Shown: positions 1-24,379 of the stretch, one piece after another | Layout of the letters: every line of letters starts with the position of its first letter | Position numbering within the stretch: the first letter of the stretch is position 1 | NCBI GenBank assembly: GCA_964640635.1 | Contig: CAZXFD010000001.1 | Span: forward strand, 248,306 to 312,305 | Reading direction: 5' to 3' | Length of the DNA stretch: 64,000 bases | Origin: an uncultured Gammaproteobacteria bacterium | GTDB lineage: Bacteria > Patescibacteriota > Patescibacteriia > UBA1558 > S5-K13 | Notes under the pieces: generated by a model | Told to the model about the DNA's origin: nothing | What the model saw: the letters and a program-made list of their open reading frames with translations, nothing else | Databases searched by the model: none | Made by a program: the position numbers and the translations under genes

Positions 1-768
1 ATTACCAAGTCTAATAGCTCTCATATTGGTTCCTGTTTTAGTATTGTTGAGATCTTGACAGCTTTATATTTTGAAATATTAAATATTAATCCAAATGATC
101 CTTATAATGAAAATAGGGATATTTTTGTTTTAAGCAAGGGACATGCAGCAGTCTCTCTTTACGCGACTTTAGCAGAGGCGGGGTTCATTTCAAAAGAAAG
201 GCTTAGTGAATATGCTCAAAACGGAAGTATTCTGTGTGGTCACATTATAAAGAAAAGCCTCCCTGGTATAGAAGTCTCGTCTGGTTCTTTAGGGCACGGA
301 CTTTCAATTGTAGCTGGAATGGCATGGGCTTCTAAAAAAAATAATGATAATAGAAAATTTTATTGTATTCTAGGAGATGGAGAGTGCAATGAAGGATCTG
401 TTTGGGAAGCCGTAATGTTTGCTACACAAAATAAATTAGATAATCTTACTATAATTATTGATTTTAATAATCAGCAAGGAATGGGAGATGCAACGAAAAT
501 TATTGATCAAACAAATATTTGTGAACGCTTAGATGCTTTTGGTTGTAATGCAAAAATTATTGATGGACATAGTTTTTTAGAAATATTAAAAGTATTTGAT
601 AAGAAGAATATAGAAAAACCGAGGGCTATCGTATTAAAAACTATAAAAGGTAAAGGTGTTTCATTTATGGAAAATTCAATAGATTGGCACTATAAGACTC
701 CAAATTCAGAACAGTATGAACTTGCAAAAAAAGAATTATTATCACAACAATCATGCGAAATACAATAA
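1..768 (+). CDS. Transketolase, N-terminal (TPP-binding) subunit; 5' partial, the frame is open from window base 1
   Basis: GDGECNEGSVWEA TPP-binding motif; GHAAVSLY; ~240 aa N-subunit length of split transketolases; the in-frame translation continues upstream of the first ATG to nt 1. Confidence 0.8.
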   Translation: MTKSNSSHIGSCFSIVEILTALYFEILNINPNDPYNENRDIFVLSKGHAAVSLYATLAEAGFISKERLSEYAQNGSILCGHIIKKSLPGIEVSSGSLGHGLSIVAGMAWASKKNNDNRKFYCILGDGECNEGSVWEAVMFATQNKLDNLTIIIDFNNQQGMGDATKIIDQTNICERLDAFGCNAKIIDGHSFLEILKVFDKKNIEKPRAIVLKTIKGKGVSFMENSIDWHYKTPNSEQYELAKKELLSQQSCEIQ

Positions 769-1685
769 TTAATGAAATTTATAAATCTGCAGAAAATAAT
801 CCAAATATAATCTTGCTTATAGCTGATTTAGGATATTCTGCTGTTGAAAAATTTATAGAAAAATTTCCAAATCAATTTTTAAATGTTGGAATAGCAGAAC
901 AAAACGCAATGGGCATAGCAGCAGGACTAGCACTAAGTGGGAAAAAAGTTTTTGTTTATAGTATTGTGCCCTTTGTTACAATGCGTTGTTTTGAACAAAT
1001 AAGAGTTGATATTTGCTACCAGAATTTGGACGTAACAATTATAGGTGTTGGTGCTGGGTTTGCTTATGGTACTTTAGGTGTTACTCATTATGGTTTAGAA
1101 GATATTTCCATTATGAGATCTTTACCAAATATGAAAATTATGTGCCCATCTGATCCATTAGAGACAAAATATATTTTTGAAAAAGTAATAAAAATAGGTG
1201 GACCTTCTTATATACGCATAAATAGGGGCGGAGAGCAGGAAATATATGATAAAGAAATTAATCAATCAATAATTAATAACCAAGAGATTATAAGGGTTAT
1301 AGGAGAAAAGGATGATGAAATTTCTATATTAGCTAGTGGAAATATATTAGGAGAGGCAAAAATAGCAGTAGATATTTTAAGAGAAAATAATATAAAAATA
1401 TCCCTTTACAGTTGCCCATTTATTAAACCAATGAATAAAAAAGAGTTATTATCAGAGATTAAAAATAAAAAAATAGTTTTTACCGTTGAAGAAAATACTA
1501 TTATTGGTGGTTTTGGCTCTTCAATTGCAGAATTTATAACAGAAGAAAATTTAAATATCGGATTAATAAGAATAGGGGTAAATGATGAGTATTGTAAGTT
1601 TATAGGTAAACAAGACTATATGAGAGATATAAATAATTTATCCAGTGATAAAATTATAAAAAATATAATCAAATATATTAATTAG
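753..1685 (+). CDS. Transketolase, C-terminal (pyrimidine-binding) subunit
   Basis: 310 aa; GIAEQNAMGIAAGLA motif; overlaps the upstream N-subunit gene (split tkt pair). Confidence 0.8.
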   Translation: MRNTIINEIYKSAENNPNIILLIADLGYSAVEKFIEKFPNQFLNVGIAEQNAMGIAAGLALSGKKVFVYSIVPFVTMRCFEQIRVDICYQNLDVTIIGVGAGFAYGTLGVTHYGLEDISIMRSLPNMKIMCPSDPLETKYIFEKVIKIGGPSYIRINRGGEQEIYDKEINQSIINNQEIIRVIGEKDDEISILASGNILGEAKIAVDILRENNIKISLYSCPFIKPMNKKELLSEIKNKKIVFTVEENTIIGGFGSSIAEFITEENLNIGLIRIGVNDEYCKFIGKQDYMRDINNLSSDKIIKNIIKYIN

Positions 1686-1686
1686 A

Positions 1687-2565
1687 ATGAAAATTTTTTT
1701 AACAGGCGGTAGTTCCTTTATAGGAAAAAATTTTATAGAGAAGTTCTCTAGAAAGTATGATTTATATTTTCCTACGCATCAGGAATTAAATTTAGAAGAT
1801 GCAGAATCTGTATTTAAATATTTAAAGGATAATTGTTTTGATATTGTATTACACGTGGCTAGCGCTGGAACAACTAGAAAAGATGTGGGGTTGTCAGATA
1901 TCTATTTTAAGAATCAAAAAATGTTTTTTAATTTAATTAGAGGAAAACAATTCTTTAATAGAATGGTTGTTATTGGTTCAGGAGCAGAATATGATAAAAG
2001 AAGAAGTATTATAGACATAGAAGAGGATCAATTTGATAATTTAATACCAATTGATCAATATAGTTTTTCAAAGTACTCAATGGCAAAATATGCTCAAAAC
2101 GTTGACTTCATTACACACTTAAGACCATTTGCTGTTTATGGCAAATATGAAGATTATCAAACTAGGTTTATATCAAATTCTATATGCAAAGCTCTTATGG
2201 ATTTACCAATTACAATAAAGCAAAATGTTTATTTTGATTATCTTTATATAAATGATTTTATAAATATATTAGATTATTTTATAGAAAATAATTCAAAGCA
2301 AATTTTTTACAATATTGCTAGAGGAAAAAAGATAGACTTGGTTTCTATTGCAAAGAAAATTTTATTAATAGTAAAAAAAGATTTGCCAATTATTATTAAT
2401 AAAGATGGATTGAATAATGAATATACTAGCAATATCAATAGATTAAAAGAAGAAATAAAAAATCTACAATACACTGATTTTGATAAGAGTATTGAAGATC
2501 TAATTTCTTATTATGAAAATATTTTACCACAATTAGATAAAGAATTATTTTTAAAAGATGTATAA
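1687..2565 (+). CDS. NAD-dependent sugar epimerase/dehydratase/reductase (SDR family)
   Basis: N-terminal Rossmann motif LTGGSSFIGKNF; the YxxxK region is compatible; sits inside a sugar operon. Confidence 0.65.
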   Translation: MKIFLTGGSSFIGKNFIEKFSRKYDLYFPTHQELNLEDAESVFKYLKDNCFDIVLHVASAGTTRKDVGLSDIYFKNQKMFFNLIRGKQFFNRMVVIGSGAEYDKRRSIIDIEEDQFDNLIPIDQYSFSKYSMAKYAQNVDFITHLRPFAVYGKYEDYQTRFISNSICKALMDLPITIKQNVYFDYLYINDFINILDYFIENNSKQIFYNIARGKKIDLVSIAKKILLIVKKDLPIIINKDGLNNEYTSNINRLKEEIKNLQYTDFDKSIEDLISYYENILPQLDKELFLKDV

Positions 2566-3877
2566 AAATATGAACAAAGAATTAAAAGAATTATTAACTA
2601 AAGAATATCAAGAAAAATTTCAGGAAAAAGATTTTATTCCAGGGGTGACTTCTATCCCTGTGTCTGGAAAGTCTTTTAATCAAGAAGAAATTATTTTAAT
2701 GACAGAAGCGGTTCTAGACGCCTGGTGGACAGAGGGTAGATTTACAGGTGAATTTGAAAGTAAATTTGCAAATTATTTTAATAAAAAATATTGCATTACA
2801 GTAAATTCTGGTTCTTCGGCAAATTTGCTCGCACTTACTGCACTATGTTCAAGTAAGATTTCTGAAGAAAAAAGATTGAATCCTGGTGATGAGGTTATTA
2901 CGGTTGCAGCAGGATTTCCAACAACAATAAATCCAATAATTCAAAATGGACTTATTCCAGTTTTTTGTGATGTTGAACTTCAGACATACAATATAGACAT
3001 TGAAGAAATAAAAAAAGCTATTAATTCAAAAACAAAAGCAATTTTTATTGCTCATACACTTGGTAATCCATACAATCTAAATGAAATTGTAAAAATATGT
3101 AGCGATAATAATTTATGGTTAATAGAGGATAATTGTGATGCGCTGGGATCAAAATTTGACAATAAATTAACAGGAACATTTGGACATATTTCTACATTTA
3201 GTTTTTATCCAGCCCATCATATTACGATGGGTGAGGGTGGTGCTATTGTAACTGATGATCTAATGCTAAATAAAATCATTAGGTCTTTACGTGATTGGGG
3301 AAGAGATTGTTGGTGTAAAACGGGTCATGATAATACATGCAAAAACAGATATAATTGGCAACTTGGAAATTTACCACTTGGCTATGATCATAAATATATT
3401 TATAGTGAGCTAGGTTATAATTTAAAAATTACAGAAATGCAAGGTGCTCTTGGCTTAGCACAAATGAATAAATTAGAAAGTTTCACAAATAAAAGAAAAG
3501 AGAATTTTAATCTTTTATATGATGGTCTAAAGCAATTTGAAGATTATTTTATACTTCCGCAAAAACATGAATTAGCTGATCCAAGCTGGTTTGGACTTCT
3601 TCTAACAATAAAAGACAATGTTAAATTTACCAGAACAGATATTCTAAGGTTTTTAGAGGAAAAGAAAATAGGAACAAGACTCCTTTTTGCTGGTAATATT
3701 ATTAAGCAACCGTATTTTGTTGATAATAAATTTAATTACAGAATTGTAGGAGATCTAAAAAATACAGATAAAATAATGAATGATACTTTTTGGATAGGAG
3801 TTTATCCCTTGATAAATGAAGAAATGATAAATTACACAATTAATTGTTTTAAAGATTTTACCCAGAAATATGAATAA
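2558..3877 (+). CDS. PMP-dependent sugar 3-dehydrase of the DegT/AHBA_syn family (E1/RfbH/ColD-like)
   Basis: 439 aa (RfbH is ~437). DegT-fold motifs are present. The position that normally holds the PLP lysine reads SFYPAHHITMGEGG (His instead of Lys), as in E1/ColD dehydrases. The Cys cluster RDCWCKTGHDNTC is compatible with the E1 [2Fe-2S] site. Confidence 0.6.
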   Translation: MYKNMNKELKELLTKEYQEKFQEKDFIPGVTSIPVSGKSFNQEEIILMTEAVLDAWWTEGRFTGEFESKFANYFNKKYCITVNSGSSANLLALTALCSSKISEEKRLNPGDEVITVAAGFPTTINPIIQNGLIPVFCDVELQTYNIDIEEIKKAINSKTKAIFIAHTLGNPYNLNEIVKICSDNNLWLIEDNCDALGSKFDNKLTGTFGHISTFSFYPAHHITMGEGGAIVTDDLMLNKIIRSLRDWGRDCWCKTGHDNTCKNRYNWQLGNLPLGYDHKYIYSELGYNLKITEMQGALGLAQMNKLESFTNKRKENFNLLYDGLKQFEDYFILPQKHELADPSWFGLLLTIKDNVKFTRTDILRFLEEKKIGTRLLFAGNIIKQPYFVDNKFNYRIVGDLKNTDKIMNDTFWIGVYPLINEEMINYTINCFKDFTQKYE

Positions 3878-4808
3878 TACAATTTTGAGCATATGTATTC
3901 CTACATATAATAGGGCGCAATATCTAAAGAAAACTCTTACTAGTATTGTTTCTCAATTTAAAAATGAAGATATTCGTAGACAAGTTGAAATTGTTATTTC
4001 TGACAATGCAAGTGAGGATAATACTAGGGAAGTGGTTGAAGAATTTAAAAATAGATTTGAAAATGTTAAATATTTTAGAAATAACAAAAATCTTGGTTTT
4101 GACAGAAATCTTTATAATGCAATAAGAAAGTCAGAAGGGCTTTTTTGTTGGACGCTAAATGATGACAAAATTTTGAATTCAAATGCACTTGATTACATGT
4201 TGAATATTTTAAAAAGCAATCAGACTATTGGATTTTTTTGTGTCAATCAAGATATCCCTTTTTCTGAAAGTAGGGAAAAAATATTTCAAAATGGAAATTA
4301 TTGGTTAAAAGAAATGGGCTTAACTGGTGGAAGATTGTCCCAGTGTATTTTAAAAAAAGATTGTATACCAACCGATGTTCAAAAATATTTTGGTAATTAT
4401 TGGTTTCATTTTTCAATTGCATTAGAAATAATAAAAGATAAGCCAGTCTTATTTATAAGGAATGTTTTAGAGAAAGACGATGATAATAGAATCTGTCGTT
4501 GGGCAGAAAATGGAGCTACGTTAACAGTTTTTATTGAGTTGAAAAATATTGTTAATAATTTAATAAATTTTGGATATGAACCAGAAGTAATTAAAGATAT
4601 TTGTACTAGTATGGCAAAGAATTTACCTAGACAGATGATTACCGCAAAAATTTATGGGTTAAAAATTAATTTTAAAGGATTGAGAATATTAATAAAGAAT
4701 TTTTATAAATACCCAATTTATTTGTTTATATCAATATTTATATTTTTTACTCCATCTTTTGTTTTTAAATTTTTGAAAAAAATGAAAAAGTTTTTAAATA
4801 ATAAATAA
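3870..4808 (+). CDS. Family 2 glycosyltransferase
   Basis: LSICIPTYNRAQYL ... ISDNASEDNT (GT-A DxD-type N-terminus); C-terminal TM segment. Confidence 0.7.
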   Translation: MNNTILSICIPTYNRAQYLKKTLTSIVSQFKNEDIRRQVEIVISDNASEDNTREVVEEFKNRFENVKYFRNNKNLGFDRNLYNAIRKSEGLFCWTLNDDKILNSNALDYMLNILKSNQTIGFFCVNQDIPFSESREKIFQNGNYWLKEMGLTGGRLSQCILKKDCIPTDVQKYFGNYWFHFSIALEIIKDKPVLFIRNVLEKDDDNRICRWAENGATLTVFIELKNIVNNLINFGYEPEVIKDICTSMAKNLPRQMITAKIYGLKINFKGLRILIKNFYKYPIYLFISIFIFFTPSFVFKFLKKMKKFLNNK

Positions 4809-4814
4809 AATCTT

Positions 4815-5870
4815 ATGAATAATGAATCTAAATTAGTGGTGTTTGATATTGATGTTCCTGAGCTTTTAAATAATAAAGTTTTTGATCCTAGTGAAGCAAC
4901 TAAGATAAGCCATACATATTTACCAACATGTTATTTATTCAATGAGGCTAAAAATAATGGTATTGATTTTATTACCCCAGATGTATATTTTAGTCTTTCA
5001 GAAAAACCTAAAAAAGTATTTATGATAACCCATTTAAAATCTACTTACACTAGTAAGCTCATAGAAGCAGGCGTTGTACCACTTATTTTAACATGCCAAG
5101 AATCGCCATTTATTGCAACTAGATTTTATATGGGGTTAAAAAAATATTCTGCTAAATTTAAGTATTCATTTGTTTTTTCTGGTATGAAAAAAATGCTTAG
5201 TAATAAAACTATTTATAAGCAGATGTTTTTTCCTGAATCATATAGTTCGATTAACGAAAACCCTTTGGATTATAAAGATAGGCTGTTTTTGGTTGTAATA
5301 AGTAGTGCAAAGGGTGTTGGAAGTTTGATAAAGTCTGTGTTATTAAAATTAATTTATGGATTTGGAGTCAAAGAGATTTATCCAGAAAGAAGAAGGTCTA
5401 TTAAGTTTTTTTCACAAAAACAAGGGTTTGACTTGTATGGTTTTGGTTGGGATAAAGCAAATTTCAAAGATTTAAAAAGAGAGGATATAGATAAATGTTA
5501 TCGTGGTACAGTTATAGATAAAGTTAAAACACTTAGTCAATATAAATTTGTTTTATGTTTTGAGAACGCTATTTTTCCAGGATATATTACTGAAAAGATT
5601 TTTGATCCAATGTTCGCTGGTTGTGTGCCAGTATATTTTGGTGCACCTGATATAGAAAAATATGTTGATAAGGAAGCTTTCATTAATTTTGCAAATTTTA
5701 AAAATTATGATGCTCTTTATGAATATTTATTAGTCATTGATGAAAATCAATACAATAATTATCTGAGTAATATAAAAAAATATTTAAACTCTGAAAATTA
5801 TAAAAAGTTCACTCAAGAATACTATGCTAAACAGTGCTTAGATATTATAACACAAGAATTTCAAAAATAA
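4815..5870 (+). CDS. GT10 alpha-1,3(/4)-fucosyltransferase-like glycosyltransferase
   Basis: The motif YKFVLCFENAIFPGYITEKIFD matches the alpha-1,3-FucT signature (FxLxFENSxxxxYxTEK) seen in H. pylori FutA and eukaryotic FUTs. Confidence 0.65.
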   Translation: MNNESKLVVFDIDVPELLNNKVFDPSEATKISHTYLPTCYLFNEAKNNGIDFITPDVYFSLSEKPKKVFMITHLKSTYTSKLIEAGVVPLILTCQESPFIATRFYMGLKKYSAKFKYSFVFSGMKKMLSNKTIYKQMFFPESYSSINENPLDYKDRLFLVVISSAKGVGSLIKSVLLKLIYGFGVKEIYPERRRSIKFFSQKQGFDLYGFGWDKANFKDLKREDIDKCYRGTVIDKVKTLSQYKFVLCFENAIFPGYITEKIFDPMFAGCVPVYFGAPDIEKYVDKEAFINFANFKNYDALYEYLLVIDENQYNNYLSNIKKYLNSENYKKFTQEYYAKQCLDIITQEFQK

Positions 5871-6811
5871 TGCCAAAAATTACAATAGCCATTACAACTT
5901 ACAACAGAAGGGAATATCTATTGAGTTCCATCAGGAGTATTTTAAATCAAGCATTCCAGGATTTTAAAATTATTGTTTTTGATAGTGGTAGTGACTATGA
6001 TATAGATAAATTTATCAAAGACTTTGATGATTCTAGAATATATTTAGAAAAGAGCTCAGAAAAAATAGATAGTTTCAATAATTTTAAAAGAGTTTTTAAT
6101 TTTGGATATGAATCAGAATATTTAATGGTTTTTCATGATGATGATGTTATGCATCCAAAACTTTTAGAAACAGAGGTTGGGATAATGGAAAGAAATAAGA
6201 GCTTAATTTGGGTTGGATCTGGATTATCTTTTGTCAGTGATAACTCTAAAATGAATTGTTTCAAGGATAAGTTAAGACTAAAACTTGAAGAAGTATATGA
6301 TACAAAAAATTTAATAAGATTGATTTTAAAAAACTTTCACTTAGCTTATGATAGTGTTGTGTATAGAGTTGTCTATATTGAAGATATAAGTCCGTTTTTT
6401 AAAAAATTTGACAAATGGAATGATAGGCCATTTTTAATTGAATTATCGAAAAAAGGGAAGGTAGCAATTACAAGAGAATCTCTTGTTAATTATAGAATAC
6501 ATAAAAATCAAGATTCACAGGGTAATAATAGTGATAAATTAATTTATTTAATAAATTTATTTAATTTTTATAAAGAAAACTTATCTGTTATTGAAAGCCC
6601 AGAAGATAAAAAGTTATTTTATTCTTGGTCTATTAATAATAGTATATTATCAGCTATCAGTTTTTCAGGAAGTTTTAAGGAATATATTAACTCAATAAAA
6701 GAATTTAAAAAACAAGAACTATTTAAATTTAGTTACGTTAATTTGAAAGGTTTAATTTATTTTATAAAAGCGTTATTTGTCTTAGTCAAAAGAGAATTTA
6801 TAAAAAAATAA
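5870..6811 (+). CDS. Family 2 glycosyltransferase
   Basis: MPKITIAITTYNRREYL ... VFDSGSDYD. The likely true start is the ATG at 5870, overlapping the upstream stop by 1 nt; the ORF track opens at 5834. Confidence 0.7.
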   Translation: MPKITIAITTYNRREYLLSSIRSILNQAFQDFKIIVFDSGSDYDIDKFIKDFDDSRIYLEKSSEKIDSFNNFKRVFNFGYESEYLMVFHDDDVMHPKLLETEVGIMERNKSLIWVGSGLSFVSDNSKMNCFKDKLRLKLEEVYDTKNLIRLILKNFHLAYDSVVYRVVYIEDISPFFKKFDKWNDRPFLIELSKKGKVAITRESLVNYRIHKNQDSQGNNSDKLIYLINLFNFYKENLSVIESPEDKKLFYSWSINNSILSAISFSGSFKEYINSIKEFKKQELFKFSYVNLKGLIYFIKALFVLVKREFIKK

Positions 6812-6820
6812 GTACTATTT

Positions 6821-7741
6821 ATGTCGTTAATAATTTTAACAAAATCTCCTATAATAAATATATTATCACTTGAATTTTATAAGAATATTATAAAGAGACT
6901 AACTTATCGTACACGTGGACCACAAGCAGTCATACAAAGCCTTATAACTGGCTTAGATGAGATAGGATTTGAATATAAACTAAATCCAAATATTCAAGGT
7001 ATTAACGAAAATTCTACTGTGTGGGTTAACGAGAGTATAGAAACATTAAAATTTGCTATTGGTTTAAAGAAGCTTAAAAGAATAAAAAAATTAATCGTAG
7101 GACCAAATATTGTTATAACGCCAGATGATAAAGATAAAATTATTCAAGATGACAACATAGATATTTGTTTGGTGCCATCACAATGGGTCAAAGATTTTTA
7201 TAGCTGTTTTGGGACAAATGAATTCAAGAATAGGTTAAAAATTTGGGCAGCGGGTGTGTTACTTAAAGAAATAATAGAAAATAGTGATGAATTATGTTTG
7301 GTTTACAAAAAAGATATAAATTATGAAGTTTTTAAAATGGTTGTAGATGAGTTGACAAAAAGAAATCTGAAATACAAAATCATAGAATATGGAAAATATA
7401 GGAGAGAGGATTATTTTAAGCTTTTAAATGAATCTAAATTCATGATTTATCTTCAAAGCATTGAGAGCCAAGGTATTGCGATGTTTGAGGCATGGGAAAG
7501 GGATGTTCCAACTTTAATTTATCTTAATAATACATATATAAACAAAAATGTTAGTATATTTGGGAATATCTCAGCTCCTTATTTAAGTAATCAATCAGGC
7601 ATGTTCTTTGACTATAATAATTTCAATCAAAAATTAGATCATTTAATTAATAATATTGATAATTTTCAACCGAGAGAATACATTAAACAAAACTTTACTA
7701 ATAAATTATGCGCAGAAAAGTTTTTAGAATTAATTAAATAA
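6821..7741 (+). CDS. Hypothetical protein (possible glycosyltransferase-like accessory protein)
   Basis: 306 aa ORF in an operon of GTs; no recognisable motif. Confidence 0.35.
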   Translation: MSLIILTKSPIINILSLEFYKNIIKRLTYRTRGPQAVIQSLITGLDEIGFEYKLNPNIQGINENSTVWVNESIETLKFAIGLKKLKRIKKLIVGPNIVITPDDKDKIIQDDNIDICLVPSQWVKDFYSCFGTNEFKNRLKIWAAGVLLKEIIENSDELCLVYKKDINYEVFKMVVDELTKRNLKYKIIEYGKYRREDYFKLLNESKFMIYLQSIESQGIAMFEAWERDVPTLIYLNNTYINKNVSIFGNISAPYLSNQSGMFFDYNNFNQKLDHLINNIDNFQPREYIKQNFTNKLCAEKFLELIK

Positions 7742-7749
7742 TTATATAA

Positions 7750-8478
7750 ATGAAAAATATTATTAAAAAAATAATTAAATTTATATTATTTCCATTTATT
7801 CTTTTTGATTATATAAAATTTTATAAGATAAAAGATAATCGTTTTATTTTTAATCTAAAAGATGCCTATCCTTGCATAAAAGATAAAACAATAAAAACAG
7901 GATTTGATAGGCATTATGTATATCATACTGCCTGGGCAGCTAGAAAAGTAAAAGAAATAAATCCTGAGTTTCACATTGATATTTCTTCAAGTTTATATTT
8001 TGCTAGTATTGTGTCTGCATTTATTCCAGTAAAATTTTATGATTATAGACCAGCAAATATAGAACTATCTAATATGGAGAGCTTATGTGGAAATTTAATG
8101 AGTTTGCCATTTGAAAGTAATAGTATTAGATCTCTGTCTTGTATGCATGTAGTAGAGCATATTGGTCTAGGTCGTTATGGGGATAAAATTGATTCATCTG
8201 GTGATTTAAAGGCTATAAATGAGTTAAAGAGAGTTTTGGCAGTGAATGGATCTTTATTGTTTGTAGTACCTATGGGAAAAACTTCTAAAATAGAATTTAA
8301 CGCTCATAGAATTTATATATTCAAACAAATAAAGGAATATTTTTCAGATTTAGAATTAAAAGAATTTTCTTTAATTCCAGAAAAAAATGGTTCCATAATA
8401 TATAATGTAACAGAAAGTGACGTAAATAAAGAAAATTATGCTTGTGGATGTTTTTGGTTTATAAAAAAAATCATATGA
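7750..8478 (+). CDS. SAM-dependent methyltransferase-like protein (DUF268-like)
   Basis: The pattern HYVYHTAWAARKV ... LPFESNSIRSLSCMHVVEHIGLGRYGD ... LAVNGSLLFVVPMG resembles DUF268 / class I MTase motif post-I/II regions. Confidence 0.45.
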   Translation: MKNIIKKIIKFILFPFILFDYIKFYKIKDNRFIFNLKDAYPCIKDKTIKTGFDRHYVYHTAWAARKVKEINPEFHIDISSSLYFASIVSAFIPVKFYDYRPANIELSNMESLCGNLMSLPFESNSIRSLSCMHVVEHIGLGRYGDKIDSSGDLKAINELKRVLAVNGSLLFVVPMGKTSKIEFNAHRIYIFKQIKEYFSDLELKEFSLIPEKNGSIIYNVTESDVNKENYACGCFWFIKKII

Positions 8479-9326
8479 CAACAATAAAACTAAAGGGTGG
8501 TCTTGGTAATCAATTATTTCAATATTCATTCGGAAGATTTTTGTCTATAAAAATAAATGAAGAGGTAAAATTGGATGCAAGTAGTTTAAGTGGTCCAAAA
8601 GACACGCCCAGAACTTATGCTCTAGATGTTTTTAACATTTATTTAAAAATGGCAACAAATATTGAAATTGAAAAAACTAAATATCCTTATGGTTTTTTAT
8701 CTAAGATTTTTAGAATTATCAATCAAAAGGTATTAAAAAGATATAATATTGGATATGATGAATATCTATTGAAATCAAGATCAAAATATTTTGAAGGATA
8801 TTTTCAAAGCTATAAATATTTAGATCCAATCAGAGATGTGTTGTTAACAGAAATTACTCTAAAAGAATCAATAGAAGATAAGTGTAAAGAAGTTTTAGAA
8901 AATATTAAAAAATCAAATTCAGTATCAATTCACATAAGACGTGGAGATTATGTAAATGATGAAAAAACAAAACAAGCTCATAATGTTTGTGATTTAGAAT
9001 ATTATAAAAAAGCTATTAATATTATTAATGACAAAATTGAAAATCCGGTATTTTTTATTTTTTCAGATGATATAAATTGGGTAAGGGAAAATTTGAAAAT
9101 AAATGCTGAAACTCATTATGTTTCAAATGAAGCCATAAAAGATTTTGAAGAACTTATCATTATGAGTAAATGTTATAATAATATTATTGCAAATTCTAGT
9201 TTTAGTTTTTGGGGTGCATGGCTTAATCAAAATGAAAATAAAATTGTTATTGCCCCAGGAAAATGGCACAATAAACTGGACTATGAATACAAAGACTTAT
9301 TACCAGGGTCATGGATAAAAATATAA
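8475..9326 (+). CDS. GT11 alpha-1,2-fucosyltransferase
   Basis: N-terminal IKLKGGLGNQLFQYSFG and HIRRGDY motifs are hallmark GT11 (FutC/WbsJ) signatures. The start is probably M at 8475; the track opens at 8442. Confidence 0.75.
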   Translation: MTTIKLKGGLGNQLFQYSFGRFLSIKINEEVKLDASSLSGPKDTPRTYALDVFNIYLKMATNIEIEKTKYPYGFLSKIFRIINQKVLKRYNIGYDEYLLKSRSKYFEGYFQSYKYLDPIRDVLLTEITLKESIEDKCKEVLENIKKSNSVSIHIRRGDYVNDEKTKQAHNVCDLEYYKKAINIINDKIENPVFFIFSDDINWVRENLKINAETHYVSNEAIKDFEELIIMSKCYNNIIANSSFSFWGAWLNQNENKIVIAPGKWHNKLDYEYKDLLPGSWIKI

Positions 9327-10108
9327 ACTATATGTCCAAAGTAAGTATCATAATAATCACATACAATAGAGAAGAATTTATCAAAGAAGCTATTGAAAGT
9401 GTTTTATTTCAATCATTTCGAGATTGGCAACTAATAATCATTGATGATGGATCAGATGACAAAACAAAAGAGCTTGTTAAGGAGTATTTAAATATAGGTC
9501 TTAATATCAAATATGTTAGAAATGAAAAAAGATTAGGTATTTCAAAGGCTAGAAATTTAGCATTATCGCTATGTGAAAGTAAATATATAGCGGTATTAGA
9601 TAGTGATGACCTGTGGTGTGATAGTGAAAAATTACAAAAACAAGTTGATTTTTTGGAAAAAAATAAAGAATATGCACTTGTTGCTACAAATGCAATTTTT
9701 ATAAATAATAGAGGAGAAAGCATTAAAAAATCAAATATAAGACTAACTGACAAAAATATACGAAAGTGTATTTTGTTAAGAAATCAATTTTTTCATTCAA
9801 GCGTAATGTTTAGAAATGATATTTTCAAAATTTTAAGTGGTTATGATGAAAGTTTAAAAATAGGTGAAGATTATGATTTGTTTTTAAGGATCGGTAAAAA
9901 ATATAAATTTGCCAACATAAAAGATTATTGTATTAAATATAGGGTTCACAATAATAGTATTTGTGTTTCAGATAAAATATGCGCATCGCATGATACTCAA
10001 AATATTATAAAAAAATATAGGACCTATTATCCTAATTATTTTTTTGCACTTATTAAATCTTATTTACGAATTCTTTTAGCTTATTTATCTAAATTTTTAT
10101 CCCGCTAA
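9311..10108 (+). CDS. Family 2 glycosyltransferase
   Basis: VSIIIITYNREEFI ... IIIDDGSDD ... LDSDD (DxD). The alternative start is 9332. Confidence 0.7.
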   Translation: MDKNINYMSKVSIIIITYNREEFIKEAIESVLFQSFRDWQLIIIDDGSDDKTKELVKEYLNIGLNIKYVRNEKRLGISKARNLALSLCESKYIAVLDSDDLWCDSEKLQKQVDFLEKNKEYALVATNAIFINNRGESIKKSNIRLTDKNIRKCILLRNQFFHSSVMFRNDIFKILSGYDESLKIGEDYDLFLRIGKKYKFANIKDYCIKYRVHNNSICVSDKICASHDTQNIIKKYRTYYPNYFFALIKSYLRILLAYLSKFLSR

Positions 10109-10140
10109 ACAATTAATCTGTTATCCTATTAAGCAATTAA

Positions 10141-11511
10141 TTACATTCCGCCTCCCTTGACGACCGCATCAATAGTTTTAAGTATAATAGAAATGTCGAG
10201 TGCGAGATTTCTATTTTTGATATAGTATAAATCGTATTCTAGTTTTTCTATTGCATCATCAATTGTGTTACCATAGGGATAGTTTATTTGAGCCCAGCCA
10301 GAAAGGCCTGGTTTTACAAGTAGTCTATGACTGTAGAAGGGGATTTCTTTTTCAAGAGACTCAATAAATTCTGGTCTTTCGGGGCGAGGACCGATAAGAC
10401 TCATATCGCCTTTTAGAATATTTATAAATTGTGGTATTTCATCTAATCTTGTTTTTCTTAAAAATTTTCCAAACTTTGTAATTCTGGAGTCATTTTTTGA
10501 TGCCCATTGTGCGCCATTTTTTTCTGCATTATCAATCATTGTTCTAAATTTCATTGCAAGAAAATTTTCTCCATTTTTTCCGGTTCTGTATTGTTTAAAA
10601 AATATTGGTCCACGAGAGCCAACCTTTATTCCAATAATTATGAAAGGAACTATTATAAGTGATAGTATTAGTAGAATGAATGTGAAGATTTTTTCAAAAA
10701 TATTTTTACCAAAATCAAATATGAATTTTTTATTTTCATTTAGATTGCTTATAAGCCACATTTGATTGATATTTTTAAGCACCACTTTGCCAAGATATTT
10801 TTCATAAAACTCTGTAGTTTTTATTACTTCTATTTTGAGATTAATACATTTTAAAAGTTTGCCAGATATATTATTGTCAAAAAGTAAATCATCGTCTATT
10901 ACAATGCTTTGAATTTTATTGTTTTCTAAATAGTCTTCTAGATTTTCAATACTTGTTTTTTCAATTAGATCTAGGTTAATATTATTTAAGGGATTAATGT
11001 ATGTTTTTATATTTAATTCAAGTTCCGGTTTTTGATTGATACTTTTTAATAAATCGGGGTTGTTTGTTATAACAAGAGAATTTTGTTGAATTTTGTATCT
11101 ATACAAAGCTTTATTTGCAAAAAATCTCCAAATATAAAAAAGAATTCCAAATATTAATATATTTAAAACAAGTATAGTTTTTGGAGTAATGATATTTTGA
11201 GGGGTTATATAAAAATACAAGACGCTAAGAAAGAAATTCATTATAGAAAAATTTATTATACTTACAATAATTTCATATTTATTTTTTATTATTTTATTTG
11301 TTTCATACAATCTTAATGCATACAATATAACAAGCCACATTATATAAAGAGTTGTAAAATATGGAATATGTTTGAAAAATAGATTGTCCGATATATTAAA
11401 ATTATATCTTATCAGGAGTGCTAAAAATAAAGCAAAATAGAGACATATTGTGTCCCCAGTAAAGAAAATTATTTTTTTAATTTTTAATTTTAGATCCGTG
11501 TCTAATGTCAT
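10141..11511 (-). CDS. Polyprenyl-phosphate hexose-1-phosphate transferase (bacterial sugar transferase, WbaP/EpsL family)
   Basis: 456 aa. N-terminal TM helices; the C-terminal catalytic domain reads GPRPE ... LLVKPGLSGWAQINYPYG, typical of the Bac_transf family. Confidence 0.75.
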   Translation of the reverse strand: MTLDTDLKLKIKKIIFFTGDTICLYFALFLALLIRYNFNISDNLFFKHIPYFTTLYIMWLVILYALRLYETNKIIKNKYEIIVSIINFSIMNFFLSVLYFYITPQNIITPKTILVLNILIFGILFYIWRFFANKALYRYKIQQNSLVITNNPDLLKSINQKPELELNIKTYINPLNNINLDLIEKTSIENLEDYLENNKIQSIVIDDDLLFDNNISGKLLKCINLKIEVIKTTEFYEKYLGKVVLKNINQMWLISNLNENKKFIFDFGKNIFEKIFTFILLILSLIIVPFIIIGIKVGSRGPIFFKQYRTGKNGENFLAMKFRTMIDNAEKNGAQWASKNDSRITKFGKFLRKTRLDEIPQFINILKGDMSLIGPRPERPEFIESLEKEIPFYSHRLLVKPGLSGWAQINYPYGNTIDDAIEKLEYDLYYIKNRNLALDISIILKTIDAVVKGGGM

Positions 11512-11683
11512 ATGCTAATTTTATCAAATTTATCTTATTTTTACTATATTTTTGGATATTTATCAATATTGAATATTTATGAAAAATATTATATTATAAT
11601 AGTATTAAAGATTAAAAATGTCAATCCCGTTTGGCGGGATAAGTTTCTTTAAGAACTATTTATATTTAAAAATAAAATTTTAT

Positions 11684-13003
11684 ATGTCAAATAAAAAAAT
11701 ATTATTATTTGTTTTTATTTTTTTCTTCCTTTTTGTATCAAAAAATGCTTTAGCTGAGATTACTTTTAATAATATTGAGGTTTTTGATATAGTGGATAGA
11801 ACGGCAAAGGTAAGATGGAATACCAGTCAAGAAACAAAAGGAGATGTTTATTACGGTGAAAATCAAAATAATCTAGATAGGTGGATGGGCTATAGCTTGT
11901 ATAGCATTCAACATGAAACCGTTTTAAGCGGGTTAGATGATGATAAAGATTATTATTATAAAATAGTAGCTACAAATTCTGCAGGAGAAACATCAGAGAC
12001 CTTTATTAATTCATTTAACACAGATAATATAGCAGACACAATAAGGCCAACTTTTTTAAATCAAGAAATAGTTCAGACAACATCAGATGCTGTTACTGTA
12101 TCTTGGGTAACTGATGAAGATACAAAGGCAGAGATTTGGTATGGCTTTGAAGATGATAGAGATAAAAAAGTTATTTACTCTGGTTATAAGAAAAATCATA
12201 TTTTACCAATTTATAAATTAGATAATGATTCAAGATACAGTTTGATGATAATAGCTGAAGATAGATCCAAAAATAAAACAGAAAGTAGAGTTTTGTTTTT
12301 TAACACATCAAGTGGTGATACTACTCATACGCTTGTTATTTCTAATATCAAGCCTCAGGGTCCAGGAGACCAAATGATAGGATTAAGAGATGCTAAAATT
12401 ACATGGAATACAAATTTCATAGCAAAAGGACTTCTTACATATGGAACAAGTGAAAATAGTTTAAATAAAAAGATTTATGTATCACCAGATAAGGCAACAG
12501 AACATATTGCTGTTTTATCTGGATTAGAACCAAATACAAGGTATTATTACAGGATTAAAGCCTATGAAAGTCTTTATAATAAAACCGCACAAACTGCAGT
12601 TTTAAATTTTACAACCAAAAATATCAAAACAAATTTGAAAACAGGAGATATAGTGAAGGGTTCTGGTCCAAAAGTATACATAATAAAAGGAAATAATAAA
12701 TATTCTATACCAAATGAAACGGTTTTTAATGCTTTAGGTTTGAAATGGTCATGGCTTGATGACGTTGATGATTCAAAATTGGCAGAATATAAAAATTTGG
12801 GAGATATTTCTTCTACTAAGCATCCAGATGGAGCACTCATAAAATATGATGGTAAATCAACTGTTTATGTTATTGAGGGTGGAAAGAAAAGACCAATACT
12901 AACAGCATCTGCCTTTAATAAGCTTGGATATGATTGGTCTAAGATTATAAACTTATCAAAGACTAGTAAATTCAAATATACAACTGGTAAAAATATTCAG
13001 TAA
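11684..13003 (+). CDS. Secreted protein with fibronectin-III-like repeats
   Basis: Signal peptide MSNKKILLFVFIFFFLFVSKNALA; four repeated modules of the form VxWxT...YGxxxxxL...GL.P.T.YYY(K/R)I (PAP-N/FN3-like). Confidence 0.5.
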   Translation: MSNKKILLFVFIFFFLFVSKNALAEITFNNIEVFDIVDRTAKVRWNTSQETKGDVYYGENQNNLDRWMGYSLYSIQHETVLSGLDDDKDYYYKIVATNSAGETSETFINSFNTDNIADTIRPTFLNQEIVQTTSDAVTVSWVTDEDTKAEIWYGFEDDRDKKVIYSGYKKNHILPIYKLDNDSRYSLMIIAEDRSKNKTESRVLFFNTSSGDTTHTLVISNIKPQGPGDQMIGLRDAKITWNTNFIAKGLLTYGTSENSLNKKIYVSPDKATEHIAVLSGLEPNTRYYYRIKAYESLYNKTAQTAVLNFTTKNIKTNLKTGDIVKGSGPKVYIIKGNNKYSIPNETVFNALGLKWSWLDDVDDSKLAEYKNLGDISSTKHPDGALIKYDGKSTVYVIEGGKKRPILTASAFNKLGYDWSKIINLSKTSKFKYTTGKNIQ

Positions 13004-13197
13004 ACAAAAAATATCTTATCTCAGATATTTCATAAAATTCGAAATTCAAACTTCTAAATTTAAAATTATTTTGGTACACTGCCGTGCTCTAACAACTATG
13101 TGCATACAATGTCCATAGGCTTTTTTAGGGTCTTTTTGATATTCTAAATTAGGCACATTAGTCATGGCTAAAATATTGCCCTAAGCACTATGTACCA

Positions 13198-13226
13198 TTG
13201 ACAATGTCAATTTAATATGATAATGT
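13198..13226 (+). promoter_or_regulatory. Sigma70-like promoter (TTGACA-17-TAATGT) in front of the 13272 ORF; the -35 lies in the palindrome TTGACAaTGTCAA
   Basis: Read directly from sequence, followed by a strong RBS AAGGAGG 6 nt before the ATG at 13272. Confidence 0.45.
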
Positions 13227-13271
13227 AATCTGTTAAATAATAACAAATAACTAAATTCTAAGGAGGATCAA

Positions 13272-13811
13272 ATGGACAATTTACTTATTATACTGTTAAA
13301 TCTCATATATGGATTCATTCCTTATGGGAAAAACATGGTATGTCTTTTTGGTGGAATAAACAAAAATGGGAGTGTCTACTCTCTAATTAGTTTATTCACT
13401 AAAGCAGAAAACGCCTATTCAATAATTAATATTTCTTCTGTGGTTAAAAACAATTTGTGGACTCTGCTCAATATATTGGGGTTCGCGAATGGATCAAGTG
13501 GAAACATACTATCGTTGATAAGTTTTGCAGCCGATGCAAAAAAGGAAATTAAAATTGCTTTTAGCGTTCTTGCTTTTTCTTCTGGAAATTTAAGAACATT
13601 TATTAACTTTGTTGGCATGGCAGACGAAAATATTGATGTTTATCTTTTTTCTTTCTTTGCGGCATCAACAAGTGTAAAAATAACGTTTTTCAGCTTTATT
13701 GCTATTGCCTTTAATTATGTAGAAGCAAAAATAAGCTTCTTTGCGATAGGACCAAAGGTAAAAGTTATTGTTGGGGCGTTGAGTTTAAGACAAAATTCGA
13801 ACATAGTGTAA
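13272..13811 (+). CDS. Hypothetical hydrophobic, low-complexity protein
   Basis: Strong promoter and SD upstream; the translation is Ser/Gly/Phe-rich with hydrophobic stretches; no homology recognised. Confidence 0.35.
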   Translation: MDNLLIILLNLIYGFIPYGKNMVCLFGGINKNGSVYSLISLFTKAENAYSIINISSVVKNNLWTLLNILGFANGSSGNILSLISFAADAKKEIKIAFSVLAFSSGNLRTFINFVGMADENIDVYLFSFFAASTSVKITFFSFIAIAFNYVEAKISFFAIGPKVKVIVGALSLRQNSNIV

Positions 13812-13834
13812 AATAATCGACCACGCTATTTAAA

Positions 13835-13866
13835 AGACTCGTTATAATTATGCGGGTCTTTTTTAT
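13835..13866 (+). terminator. Rho-independent terminator (AGACTCG-N11-CGGGTCT + T6)
   Basis: Hairpin followed by TTTTTT, downstream of the 13272 ORF. Confidence 0.4.
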
Positions 13867-13953
13867 TTCTCAAAAACAAAAAACACCTATTTCTAGGTAT
13901 TTCATGGTTCTCGCCACGACAAGGTGTTGAGGTCTCTTGAATCTCTCAAGGGG

Positions 13954-14028: not shown

Positions 14029-14039
14029 ATTAGAATAGT

Positions 14040-24353: not shown

Positions 24354-24379
24354 ATAAGTTGTTAAAGAACAATATTGAT

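Follow-up and report, generated by a model that had tools for sequence, protein, structure and literature searches.

Positions 1-11511 of the window, by which we mean the whole 64-kb stretch of DNA analysed, carry a glycan locus that may build a rare, yersiniose-like, C4-branched 3,6-dideoxyhexose. In this reading, to which we assign a probability of about 0.5 from sequence comparisons, a two-subunit transketolase-like enzyme and an SDR oxidoreductase take the roles of YerE and YerF, and the GT10 and neighbouring GT2 glycosyltransferases are tied to the sugar. A first-pass annotation had proposed a dideoxy, possibly branched sugar. Given a genuine E1 enzyme and the location of the transketolase pair in a conserved sugar-nucleotide cassette, it is reasonable to predict a dideoxy and probably C-branched product.

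Organization of the operon

The locus is predicted to belong to a tightly packed, Wzx-dependent operon for a surface glycan, approximately 15 kb long and from a member of the Patescibacteria (CPR), and to make up its 3' three-quarters. Its eleven co-directional genes have junction spacings of -16 to +9 nt (Table 1); the first-pass annotation counted twelve, but the twelfth, encoding the phosphotransferase, lies on the opposite strand. The GT10, GT11, E1-type 3-dehydrase, split transketolase, SDR and priming phosphotransferase genes were all recovered where that annotation had placed them, with profile scores far above chance. The first gene is clipped by the window edge, and the operon is therefore incomplete in the window; the full-length gene (275 aa) is present on L001/L002. 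Identical Logan contigs extend the locus upstream, which gives the gene order HTH_17, Wzx, RfbF, RfbG, (window edge), TkN, TkC, SDR, E1, GT2, GT10, GT2, GT-B-like, DUF268 methyltransferase, GT11 and GT2, followed by the convergent phosphotransferase. On these contigs, RfbF scored 260 bits with TIGR02623, below the cutoff of 300, and RfbG scored 458 bits with TIGR02622 (cutoff 278).

Table 1. Predicted features of the glycan locus, with positions in the window.
Feature	Position	Strand	Profile match or remark
Transketolase-like N (ThDP/PP-domain) subunit (TkN)	1..768	+	PF00456 109 bits; residues 21-275 of 275 inside window
Transketolase-like C (Pyr + C-terminal domain) subunit (TkC), altered acceptor site	753..1685	+	PF02779 (Transket_pyr) 103.5 bits, PF02780 (Transketolase_C) 64 bits
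Extended SDR oxidoreductase, proposed branch-carbonyl reductase (YerF-like role)	1687..2565	+	PF01370 80 bits; TGGSSFIG and YSFSK
E1/RfbH-type PMP, [2Fe-2S] CDP-4-keto-6-deoxyglucose 3-dehydrase (E1)	2570..3877	+	NF011936, 3bcx; called start 2570
GT2 glycosyltransferase (GT2a)	3870..4808	+	PF00535 92 bits
GT10-family glycosyltransferase, CPR-centred subfamily	4815..5870	+	PF00852 68.2 bits, C-terminal domain only
GT2 glycosyltransferase (GT2b)	5870..6811	+	PF00535 53 bits
306-aa protein, probably divergent GT-B (GT4-like) glycosyltransferase	6821..7741	+	via homologues
DUF268-type SAM methyltransferase	7750..8478	+	PF03269 50 bits (vs 25); Methyltransf_11
GT11-family glycosyltransferase (alpha-1,2-fucosyltransferase family), conserved CPR core module	8475..9326	+	PF01531 145 bits
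GT2 glycosyltransferase (GT2c), last operon gene	9311..10108	+	PF00535 124 bits
Polyprenyl-phosphate hexose-1-phosphate transferase (large PGT)	10141..11511	-	PF02397 (Bac_transf) 218 bits

Predicted pathway to a branched dideoxyhexose

As assigned by equivalog models, RfbF would form CDP-glucose and RfbG would convert it to CDP-4-keto-6-deoxyglucose, and these two upstream enzymes are predicted to complete the pathway to CDP-4-keto-3,6-dideoxyglucose. E1 would generate this last intermediate by removing the 3-hydroxyl group, with an electron donor encoded outside the locus. A regular expression for the ferredoxin motif and inspection of Pfam gene tables revealed no gene for an E3 reductase, either in the window or at any of the 87 loci checked, which leaves the E1 step incomplete. 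The E1 protein scored 685.7 bits with the NCBIfam RfbH equivalog NF011936 (cutoff 423) and matched the Yersinia E1 structure 3bcx with E=1.6e-162. Its His216, the first His of AHHIT, aligns with His220 of 3bcx, the position that is changed to Lys in 3bb8, and Cys189, Cys247, Cys249 and Cys257 form a C-X57-C-X-C-X7-C cluster. This bears out the earlier recognition of a DegT-fold enzyme with His for Lys and a Cys cluster as an E1-type 3-dehydrase.

Both transketolase-like subunits have their best solved relative in the split transketolase of Carboxydothermus hydrogenoformans (TkN with 6yak, E=1.8e-65; TkC with 6yaj, E=4.5e-50). TkN keeps the GDG...N motif, the conserved transketolase His residues (SSH, KGH, CGH, WHY) and the ThDP and donor-site residues. 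In TkC, GVGAGFAYGTLGVTHY stands where canonical transketolase has THAGLTVGEDGASHQ; the phosphate-binding His (E. coli H461) is replaced by Gly and the Asp that binds the acceptor 2-hydroxyl (D469) by Leu, substrate roles that are established in transketolase enzymology. The altered motif is present in all 80 GTDB relatives. These substitutions would fit a non-phosphorylated acceptor without a hydroxyl group beside the carbonyl, and we conclude from the sequence that the pair is a neofunctionalised transketolase.

This ThDP enzyme would add a two-carbon unit to the C4 ketone and so turn it into a tertiary alcohol. Dihydroxyethyl ('active glycolaldehyde') from a ketose phosphate or hydroxypyruvate is the most likely unit, and a pyruvate-derived acetyl equivalent is less likely. 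The SDR would then act like YerF and reduce the carbonyl of the added side chain, and the expected product is a CDP-activated, yersiniose-like C4-branched 3,6-dideoxyhexose, possibly with a 4-C-(1,2-dihydroxyethyl) branch. The SDR has no close relative in the PDB or NCBIfam (best NCBIfam match 38 bits), and its homologues (34-51% identity) in L004-L007, L024, L089, L091 and L093 occur together with either a transketolase pair or a YerE-like enzyme. The Transketolase_N, Transket_pyr, Transketolase_C and PF01370 matches agree with the first-pass assignment of a two-subunit transketolase and an SDR reductase to one operon.

Conservation of the cassette

The order RfbF-RfbG-TkN-TkC-SDR-E1 is identical in four other CPR lineages (L004, L005, L006/L007 and L024), with protein identities of 46-71%, and the same six functions are present in a Bacteroides MAG (L075). 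A His-type 3-dehydrase occurs within 10 kb in 18 of the 80 GTDB loci with relatives of the window transketolase, and in a neighbour-joining tree all seven members of the window transketolase's own clade are linked to E1. All loci found to combine E1 and the transketolase are from MAGs. The closest metagenomic relative of the GT10 gene lies in a locus (L089) with a 4,6-dehydratase, a nucleotidyltransferase, a His-type 3-dehydrase, a ThDP enzyme and an SDR 41% identical to that of the window, followed in window order by GT10, GT2b and a homologue of the 306-aa protein. The best PDB match of its ThDP enzyme is the characterised YerE-like JanthE (8rph, 399 bits). This pattern is repeated with YerE-like enzymes in L091 and L092, and with transketolase pairs in L093, L005 and L008. 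Transketolase pair and YerE-like enzyme coexist in three loci (L004, L015 and L067) and are therefore not simply interchangeable. In other branches of the transketolase-like family the neighbours are Lys-type aminotransferases, or an aldo-keto reductase and three LicD genes (L038), which indicates that the family has more than one use.

Alternative roles for the transketolase pair and the SDR

It is rather unlikely, in our estimate, that the locus makes a plain 3,6-dideoxyhexose, with the SDR acting as a C4 ketoreductase of the abequose/paratose synthase kind to give an unbranched CDP product, and with the transketolase pair doing another job, such as the supply of a separate substituent or precursor. 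If the SDR were such a ketoreductase, no ketone would remain for branching. RfbF, RfbG and E1 are indeed the classical upstream steps, and classical rfb loci close with an SDR some 280-300 aa long; the LicD context and the co-occurrence of the pair with YerE-like enzymes also suit a separate role. However, the SDR fits no known reductase model, and its homologues are also found with YerE-like enzymes, beside which one would expect a reductase of the YerF type. CPR loci strictly keep the order TkN-TkC-SDR-E1, and the altered acceptor site points to a new acceptor.

Far less probable is that the pair is the housekeeping pentose-phosphate transketolase of the organism, merely co-located, a possibility already named in the first-pass annotation. 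The window holds no second transketolase and the best solved relative is a true split transketolase, but synteny with RfbF, RfbG, SDR and E1 is kept across CPR lineages and other phyla, start and stop codons run into each other inside the operon, two canonical substrate-binding residues are gone family-wide, and both subunits stay far under the cutoffs of the NCBIfam models for transketolase. The pair might instead stand in for E3, by oxidising a ketose-derived dihydroxyethyl-ThDP and passing two electrons to the E1 [2Fe-2S] cluster. In the search described above, no E3-like gene turned up at any locus with both E1 and the transketolase, and in other enzymes the carbanion/enamine intermediates of ThDP can serve as reductants. 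Yet E3 is equally absent from an E1 locus with a YerE-like enzyme (L092), transketolase pairs also stand beside ColD-type dehydrases without an Fe-S cluster (L093, L010 and L071) and beside aminotransferases, and the E1 homologue SpnQ relies on general cellular reductases. We consider this substitution for E3 highly improbable as well.

Glycosyltransferases and the question of fucosylation

The GT2, GT10, GT2 and GT-B-like block travels with branching modules and probably installs the branched sugar or builds around it, with GT10 as the most consistent partner. At every one of the seven loci with the window's GT10 subfamily, a His-type 3-dehydrase is accompanied by a ThDP enzyme (transketolase pair in four, YerE-like in three). 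Downstream of the cassette, L005-L007 carry homologues of GT2a (52% identity), and a GT2b homologue directly follows GT10 in L089, L091, L092 and L093. The 306-aa protein has no Pfam, NCBIfam or PDB match of its own; homologues of it in L089, L091, L092 and L095 give weak matches to Glycos_transf_1 (27 bits against 26.4 in L091), and it is probably a divergent GT-B (GT4-like) glycosyltransferase.

The DUF268 methyltransferase, GT11, GT2 and phosphotransferase block constitutes a conserved CPR core-assembly module. The order methyltransferase, GT11, GT2 and convergent phosphotransferase is kept in L094 and L095 without deoxysugar genes, a GT2c homologue follows GT11 in both, and a methyltransferase homologue adjoins GT11 in L092 (65% identity) and L095. 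The phosphotransferase passes the general EPS_sugtrans model TIGR03025 (354 vs 295 bits) and falls below the WbaP (172 vs 403) and WcaJ (296 vs 411) models. The proposed divergent, WbaP-type priming transferase is a priming transferase, but it is not WbaP-specific, and its gene is not divergent but convergent with the operon, tail-to-tail. On the minus strand, positions 11624-11596 hold a promoter-like TTGACA-17-TATTAT.

The first-pass annotation predicted a fucosylated, Lewis/H-like glycan relevant to host mimicry. For this to hold, GT10 and GT11 would have to be true alpha-1,3 and alpha-1,2 fucosyltransferases supplied with GDP-fucose from elsewhere, with a Lewis/H-like glycan beside the dideoxy sugar, which we regard as improbable. 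Both proteins do pass their profile searches, at family level only, and keep the family nucleotide-sugar motifs. The GT10 match covers residues 235-335 (gathering score 23.9), where the CFENAIFPGYITEK stretch aligns with the Y246/E249/K250 region of the H. pylori FucT (2nzw, E=1.6e-15), and GT11 carries both GGLGNQLFQYSFG (GGLGNQLFQY) and HIRRGDY. All characterised GT10 enzymes are, to our knowledge, GDP-fucose transferases, and we know of no precedent for a CDP-D-sugar donor in this family. GT11 has approximately 8000 relatives, NCBI uses the name 'alpha-1,2-fucosyltransferase' for relatives of it, and the two GT11 enzymes tested accepted only GDP-linked L-sugars (PMC11987014); a GDP-L-sugar donor for GT11 would have to be supplied from elsewhere in the genome, and gmd/fcl could sit beyond the 64-kb window.

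Against this stands, as the annotation itself had noted, the absence of gmd/fcl from the window, confirmed by tblastn with E. coli Gmd and Fcl and by Pfam scans of its other large ORFs, which revealed no GDP-fucose genes. Nor do these genes occur within 10 kb at any of the seven GT10-subfamily loci or at both GT11 loci examined. GT10 is instead tied to the 3-dehydrase and ThDP enzyme, and GT11 to a module that also occurs without deoxysugar genes. The N-terminal acceptor domain of GT10 has no match in Pfam or in the 2nzw comparison, and a type-1 or type-2 LacNAc acceptor can therefore not be inferred. The 299 GT10 relatives are mostly from CPR, and the close relatives are all environmental Patescibacteria MAGs. 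The partners of these CPR bacteria are presumably other microbes, and nothing therefore points to mimicry of animal Lewis antigens. The analysis supports neither fucosylation nor a Lewis/H-like disguise.

Comparison with known systems

Characterised fucosyltransferases share with the window proteins the C-terminal nucleotide-sugar motif of GT10 (FEN...Y.TEK) and the HxRRxD motif of GT11. The N-terminal acceptor domain of the window GT10 is unrelated to that of known GT10 enzymes, and its context is a CDP-deoxysugar branching module and not GDP-fucose synthesis.

The C. hydrogenoformans split transketolase has the same two-chain architecture and ThDP motifs as the window pair, but it is a bona fide transketolase with H...GEDG.SHQ at the site where the window protein has G...GTLG.THY. 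The Salmonella/Yersinia rfb (ddh) clusters (RfbF-G-H-I with RfbJ/RfbS) have RfbF, RfbG and RfbH orthologues in common with the operon, with the E1 His and Cys cluster intact. The window locus, however, lacks RfbI/E3 and a recognisable abequose/paratose synthase, and the transketolase-like pair sits between RfbG and RfbH.

The yersiniose A pathway of Yersinia pseudotuberculosis (DdhA-D/E1-E3, YerE and YerF) follows the same route from CDP-glucose through the 4,6-dehydratase and E1 to CDP-4-keto-3,6-dideoxyglucose, after which a ThDP enzyme and a reductase follow in the same operon. The analogy with yersiniose drawn in the first-pass annotation is thus apt in function but not in homology, since YerE belongs to the acetolactate-synthase-like decarboxylase superfamily (PMC12247030), whereas the window enzyme is of the two-subunit transketolase superfamily. 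Its likely donor is a ketose or hydroxypyruvate (dihydroxyethyl unit), where YerE uses pyruvate; the window locus is without an E3 gene, and it belongs to a CPR bacterium, whereas the Yersinia pathway serves a Gram-negative pathogen that makes LPS. Sister CPR loci carry a homologous SDR and, in the position that the transketolase pair occupies here, a true YerE-like enzyme.

By architecture and context, the pair can be likened to the split-gene transketolases of the miharamycin and amipurimycin pathways in Streptomyces, for which transfer of a hydroxyacetyl group onto keto sugars has been proposed (PMC12247030). These are likewise two-subunit transketolase-family enzymes located beside keto-sugar-forming enzymes, with a keto-sugar acceptor proposed. 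They belong to nucleoside-antibiotic clusters and their role is still a proposal, whereas the window pair is part of an operon for a cell-surface glycan, in which E1 acts in a CDP-hexose pathway.

Organization of the glycan operon

Every feature named in the first-pass annotation of this region was recovered in the ORF listing and profile searches, which placed eleven closely packed genes, with junctions of −16 to +9 nt, on the plus strand from 1 to 10108 (see table). The window starts inside the first of these genes. Exact-protein look-ups retrieved Logan contigs identical to the window sequence (L001 and L002), on which the operon reaches further upstream, in the order HTH_17 gene, Wzx flippase, 262-aa nucleotidyltransferase, 373-aa dehydratase and the full 275-aa N-terminal subunit of the transketolase-like enzyme (TkN). 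The dehydratase passed the CDP-glucose 4,6-dehydratase (RfbG) equivalog TIGR02622 (458 against a cutoff of 278), and the best match of the nucleotidyltransferase was glucose-1-phosphate cytidylyltransferase (RfbF, CDP-glucose synthase; TIGR02623, 260 bits, below the cutoff of 300). Homologues of the 306-aa protein matched Pfam families weakly, and its AlphaFold model, made without alignment, was discarded (pLDDT 39.7). A promoter scan, with 102 sites against 99 expected, was uninformative in this AT-rich DNA.

Features of the glycan gene sets in the window
Feature	Position	Strand	Basis
TkN, transketolase N-terminal (ThDP) subunit	from window start, cut by edge	+	profile search
TkC, transketolase Pyr/C-terminal subunit	753-1685	+	profile search
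Extended SDR	1687-2565	+	profile search
DegT-fold protein (E1/RfbH)	2570-3877	+	profile search; called start 2570
GT2 (GT2a)	3870-4808	+	profile search
GT10	4815-5870	+	profile search
GT2 (GT2b)	5870-6811	+	profile search
306-aa protein without family assignment	6821-7741	+	
DUF268 methyltransferase	7750-8478	+	profile search
GT11	8475-9326	+	profile search
GT2 (GT2c)	9311-10108	+	profile search
Bac_transf phosphoglycosyltransferase	10141-11511	-	PF02397
Wzz-like chain-length determinant (second glycan set)	56659-57522		
Wzy_C/O-antigen-ligase-family protein (second glycan set)	60812-62158	-	
GT4 (second glycan set)	62291-63547		

The priming phosphotransferase had been described as divergent and of the WbaP type, and neither description held. 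The gene lies on the minus strand and is thus convergent with the operon. Its product has the architecture of a large phosphoglycosyltransferase, with an N-terminal membrane domain and a Bac_transf domain (PF02397, 218 bits) at residues 269-452 of 456. It passed the generic exopolysaccharide sugar transferase model TIGR03025 (EPS_sugtrans; 354 bits against 295). The WbaP-specific model TIGR03022 scored 172 against a cutoff of 403, and WbaP specificity was rejected on this score; WcaJ scored higher (296), also under its cutoff of 411. Divergent from this gene, a 461-aa protein (11618-13003) with a signal-peptide-like N terminus and repeated FN3/purple-acid-phosphatase-N-like domains may be a surface protein.

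The E1-type 3-dehydrase

From its sequence, the DegT-fold protein is unambiguously an E1 (RfbH-type) 3-dehydrase. It matched PF01041 with 325 bits, the RfbH equivalog NF011936 with 685.7 bits (cutoff 423) and the crystal structure of Yersinia E1 (3bcx) with E=1.6e-162. The proposed replacement of the PLP-binding lysine by histidine was borne out, as His216 (AHHIT) aligned to His220 of 3bcx, in the column where the H220K variant 3bb8 has lysine. The [2Fe-2S] motif C-X57-C-X-C-X7-C is likewise intact (Cys189, 247, 249 and 257), and this HCCCC pattern was kept in all E1-type homologues. The CDP-glucose synthase and CDP-glucose 4,6-dehydratase that an E1/RfbH system requires upstream are encoded on the identical upstream contigs. 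With RfbF, RfbG and E1 present, all of the classical pathway leading to CDP-4-keto-3,6-dideoxyglucose is covered apart from the E3 reductase.

No ORF with the plant-type ferredoxin motif C-x4-C-x2-C...C plus RxYS, expected of a dedicated E3 (AscD/RfbI type), was found in the window and 87 loci, by a regular-expression search crude enough for a divergent reductase to escape. Neither were Fer2, FAD_binding_6 or NAD_binding_1/FNR-type Pfam families present in the gene tables of the loci inspected, nor 4Fe-4S ferredoxins within the window. The absent partner bears on the E1 system and not on the family membership of E1 itself. It is not fatal to that system, because SpnQ, a homologue of E1, is served by general reductases of the cell.

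The transketolase-like pair

TkN contains the motifs GDGECNEG, IIDFNN, SSH, KGH, CGH and WHY, and the C-terminal subunit TkC contains AEQN with Glu49; the ThDP motif, the activating glutamate and the histidine residues are thus kept. In an alignment to the split transketolase of C. hydrogenoformans (6yaj), the canonical THAGLTVGEDGASHQ is replaced in TkC by GVGAGFAYGTLGVTHY, which places Gly100 and Leu108 at the positions of E. coli His461 and Asp469. The family is marked by G.G[GA]G..YG.LG.[ST]H where the canonical enzymes have H...GEDG.[ST]HQ, and the same loss of His and Asp was seen in all 80 best GTDB relatives. In transketolase, His461 binds the substrate phosphate and Asp469 the C2-hydroxyl of the acceptor. 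Judged by these residues, the changes in TkC fit a non-phosphorylated acceptor without a hydroxyl beside the carbonyl and would therefore suit a 3-deoxy-4-keto sugar nucleotide, an acceptor of that kind.

TkC homologues occurred mostly in CPR MAGs. The cassette RfbF-RfbG-TkN-TkC-SDR-E1 was found in the same order in four other CPR lineages, with 46-71% protein identity (L004, Magasanikbacteria; L005; L006/L007; L024, Buchananbacteria), and all six genes were present in a Bacteroides MAG (L075). In a GTDB scan with one genome per species, from which the best 80 relatives of the pair were retained, a His-type 3-dehydrase was encoded within 10 kb in 18 of the 80, with the full Cys cluster in 15-16 of those 18; about 23 further loci carried Lys-type DegT aminotransferases. 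A neighbour-joining tree placed the window transketolase in a clade of seven members, all of them E1-linked (7/7), and showed a separate large Clostridia clade with aldo-keto reductase, transketolase pair and three LicD genes. In its representative L038 (Ruminococcus flavefaciens 007c, 7351-14390), the pair lies between a small phosphoglycosyltransferase with the aldo-keto reductase and the three LicD phosphotransferases; this setting suggests a different role, possibly in polyol-phosphate synthesis. In a Bdellovibrionales MAG (L071, 700-10900), the neighbours of the pair are a ColD-type His dehydrase and a true Gmd, the latter sharing 55% identity with E. coli Gmd; this context suggests that GDP-linked 4-keto-3,6-dideoxy sugars may be substrates of the family too.

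Two of the cassette loci carry additional genes. In L004, four further genes separate RfbG from the pair (2462-7189): they encode an acetaldehyde dehydrogenase, a 4-hydroxy-2-oxovalerate aldolase of the DmpG type, a ThDP enzyme like YerE and an aminotransferase, and are reminiscent of long-chain branching of the erwiniose or caryophyllose type. Radical-SAM enzymes of the B12-binding kind, each about 650 aa long, are encoded downstream of E1 in L004 (15032-16933) and directly after it in L005 (11145-13097), and may carry out further sugar modification, for example C-methylation. All E1-plus-transketolase loci found are MAGs.

Loci of the GT10 subfamily

A metagenome scan with the window GT10 yielded only two loci; the more informative, L089, proved decisive and carries the nearest metagenomic relative of this GT10 (45% identity). 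Its gene order is 4,6-dehydratase, nucleotidyltransferase, His-type but Cys-less (ColD-like) 3-dehydrase, 603-aa TPP_enzyme_N/M/C protein, SDR (41% identical to the window SDR) and GT10; the GT10, the GT2b and the homologue of the 306-aa protein follow one another as in the window. The best PDB match of the ThDP enzyme of L089, with 399 bits against 264 for the next, was 8rph, the structure of JanthE, which has been characterised as YerE-like (PMC12188165). A further three relatives of GT10 were picked for long contigs only: L091 (Doudnabacteria) and L092 encode YerE-like enzymes with His-type dehydrases, and in L093 the SDR, TkN, TkC and a His-type dehydrase lie directly ahead of GT10 and a GT2. 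A 3-dehydrase and a ThDP enzyme thus accompany this GT10 subfamily, which has about 300 members, in 7/7 loci (window, L005, L008 of Omnitrophota, L089 and L091-L093), the ThDP enzyme being the transketolase pair in four and a YerE-like enzyme in three. A tblastn search with the L089 protein detected no YerE-like (TPP_enzyme_N/M/C) gene in the window.

Fucosyltransferase-family proteins

Both putative fucosyltransferases passed the Pfam thresholds and carried the motifs previously quoted. GT10 matched PF00852 (68.2 bits against 23.9) in the C-terminal nucleotide-sugar domain only, where the FEN...Y.TEK motif aligned to the Y246/E249/K250 region of H. pylori FucT (2nzw; YITEK covered). GT11 matched PF01531 (145 bits against 23.9) and has HIRRGDY (HxRRxD). 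The family memberships are real as judged by profile, and membership does not settle donor specificity. As the first-pass annotation had noted, the window has no gmd or fcl: E. coli Gmd and Fcl gave no tblastn hit, and scanning the remaining large ORFs against Pfam led to the same result. The same two genes were found in 0/7 loci with this GT10 subfamily, and GDP-sugar genes were also absent from L094 and L095, two loci with close GT11 relatives. The proposed Lewis/H-like epitope could not be inferred, because GT10 has an acceptor domain unrelated to those already known and all relatives are environmental Patescibacteria.

That GT10 and the following GT2 travel with the branching modules suggests that they install, or act beside, a branched sugar. 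Counting against GT10 as such a transferase, the characterised GT10 enzymes known to us use only GDP-fucose. GT11 looks like a member of a conserved CPR core-glycan assembly set, because the order methyltransferase or DUF268, GT11, GT2 and convergent phosphotransferase is kept in L094 and L095, which lack dehydrase and ThDP genes; L095 also has the HTH_17-Wzx leader. L092 joins the GT10/branching and GT11 modules as the window does. In tests of two GT11 enzymes, WbgN and FUT2, the donors GDP-L-fucose, GDP-L-colitose and GDP-L-galactose were accepted and UDP- and ADP-sugars were not (PMC11987014). The window GT11 may thus truly transfer a GDP-linked L-sugar, provided that one is synthesised by genes elsewhere in the genome.

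Other features of the window

A second glycan gene set at 54771-63547, 45 kb from the operon, comprises a DUF4012 protein and the three genes listed in the table, and may supply polymerase or ligase functions for the operon. Within this interval, the GC content at 57610-60197 is about 40%, compared with about 28% on average in the window; the two large ORFs there (527 and 344 aa) have 0 Pfam matches, and the segment may represent foreign DNA or else an unusual gene. At 22923-27787, a tRNA (22923-22993) precedes genes for a tyrosine integrase, the small subunit of a terminase and an AAA_25 protein, an arrangement that resembles a mobile element, or what is left of a prophage, inserted at a tRNA gene. 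The minus strand carries clustered defence genes at 31011-37532; their products are the Res subunit of a type III restriction system, which includes an endonuclease domain, an AAA_15/TOPRIM protein of the OLD family and a DNA methylase of the N6/N4 type. At 46072-47748, a DUF3800 protein comes before an Rfam RNA motif, DUF3800-IX (52.9 bits; minus strand, 46725-46793), and a restriction enzyme of the methyl-directed, DpnI-like kind. An 835-aa protein (16749-19256) has TrwB/TraG-type type IV secretion coupling-protein domains, and L093 has a similar gene close to its GT10 locus.

Proposed function and alternatives

The most economical reading of the operon is that TkN/TkC and the SDR would be functional analogues of the yersiniose branching enzyme YerE and its reductase YerF. 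We give even odds (about 0.5) to the corresponding model, deduced from gene content and active-site residues, in which the pair and the SDR make a yersiniose-like C4-branched sugar. The transferred unit would probably be dihydroxyethyl, because TkN is transketolase-like, and reduction would then leave a 4-C-(1,2-dihydroxyethyl)-type branch.

The pair is not a bona fide transketolase: the concern that a housekeeping enzyme merely happened to be co-located is rejected on the conserved synteny of the cassette and the active-site changes in TkC. A role as surrogate for the missing E3 is rejected as well, as the pair also accompanies Fe-S-free ColD-type dehydrases and aminotransferases. The SDR could be a plain C4 reductase; NCBIfam and PDB comparison gave no characterised close relative of it. 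A clean displacement of YerE by the transketolase is weakened by three loci (L004, L015 and L067) that carry both the pair and a YerE-like enzyme, so that the two enzyme types are not simply interchangeable. In such loci they may produce two sugars from one intermediate or act sequentially. Returning to branching by the pair and the SDR, we tentatively extend the proposal, at odds clearly short of even, to a joint one: that this large, phylum-spanning two-subunit transketolase-like family comprises NDP-keto-sugar C-branching enzymes of surface glycans that work in parallel to the YerE-like enzymes and here make a hitherto undescribed 4-C-(dihydroxyethyl)-3,6-dideoxyhexose, and that the CPR-centred GT10 clade is a branched dideoxy sugar transferase and not a fucosyltransferase.

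Significance and comparison with known systems

To our knowledge, the only enzymes known to C-branch deoxysugars of surface glycans with the help of ThDP are those of the YerE type. The searches made found no paper on transketolase-like pairs in E1-type surface-glycan loci and nothing relevant on transketolase in 3,6-dideoxyhexose, O-antigen or rfb loci, or on CPR fucosyltransferases. As a lead the gene content is clear and can be tested: it points to new branching chemistry and to a GT10 clade that carries the wrong name, with functions predicted from sequence. If the cassette works as proposed, transketolase-type sugar branching would be widespread in the envelope glycans of CPR, Bacteroidota, Acidobacteriota, Omnitrophota and Proteobacteria, and would represent a new biocatalyst class for tertiary alcohols with a hydroxylated side chain. 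'Fucosyltransferase' (GT10) annotations in uncultured bacteria could then hide other deoxysugar transferases, and our data temper the over-reading of Lewis-antigen mimicry from family names alone.

According to a 2025 review, YerE-like enzymes belong to LPS, and ketone-accepting transketolases are unproven candidates, in 13 Streptomyces antibiotic clusters only (PMC12247030). Among the systems it covers, split-gene transketolases have been proposed, without proof, for hydroxyacetyl addition to keto sugars in miharamycin/amipurimycin biosynthesis (PMC12247030). In yersiniose A formation, YerE adds a pyruvate-derived two-carbon unit to CDP-3,6-dideoxy-4-keto-glucose and YerF carries out the reduction (PMC12247030). 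The window resembles the YerE/YerF system in that a ThDP enzyme and a reductase are encoded together with a 3-dehydrase, as TkN-TkC-SDR-E1 after RfbF-RfbG. It differs in that its ThDP enzyme belongs to the transketolase superfamily and is not acetolactate-synthase-like (DC), so that it may work alike without being a member. The locus would thus operate like a yersiniose-type pathway while standing outside the YerE family.
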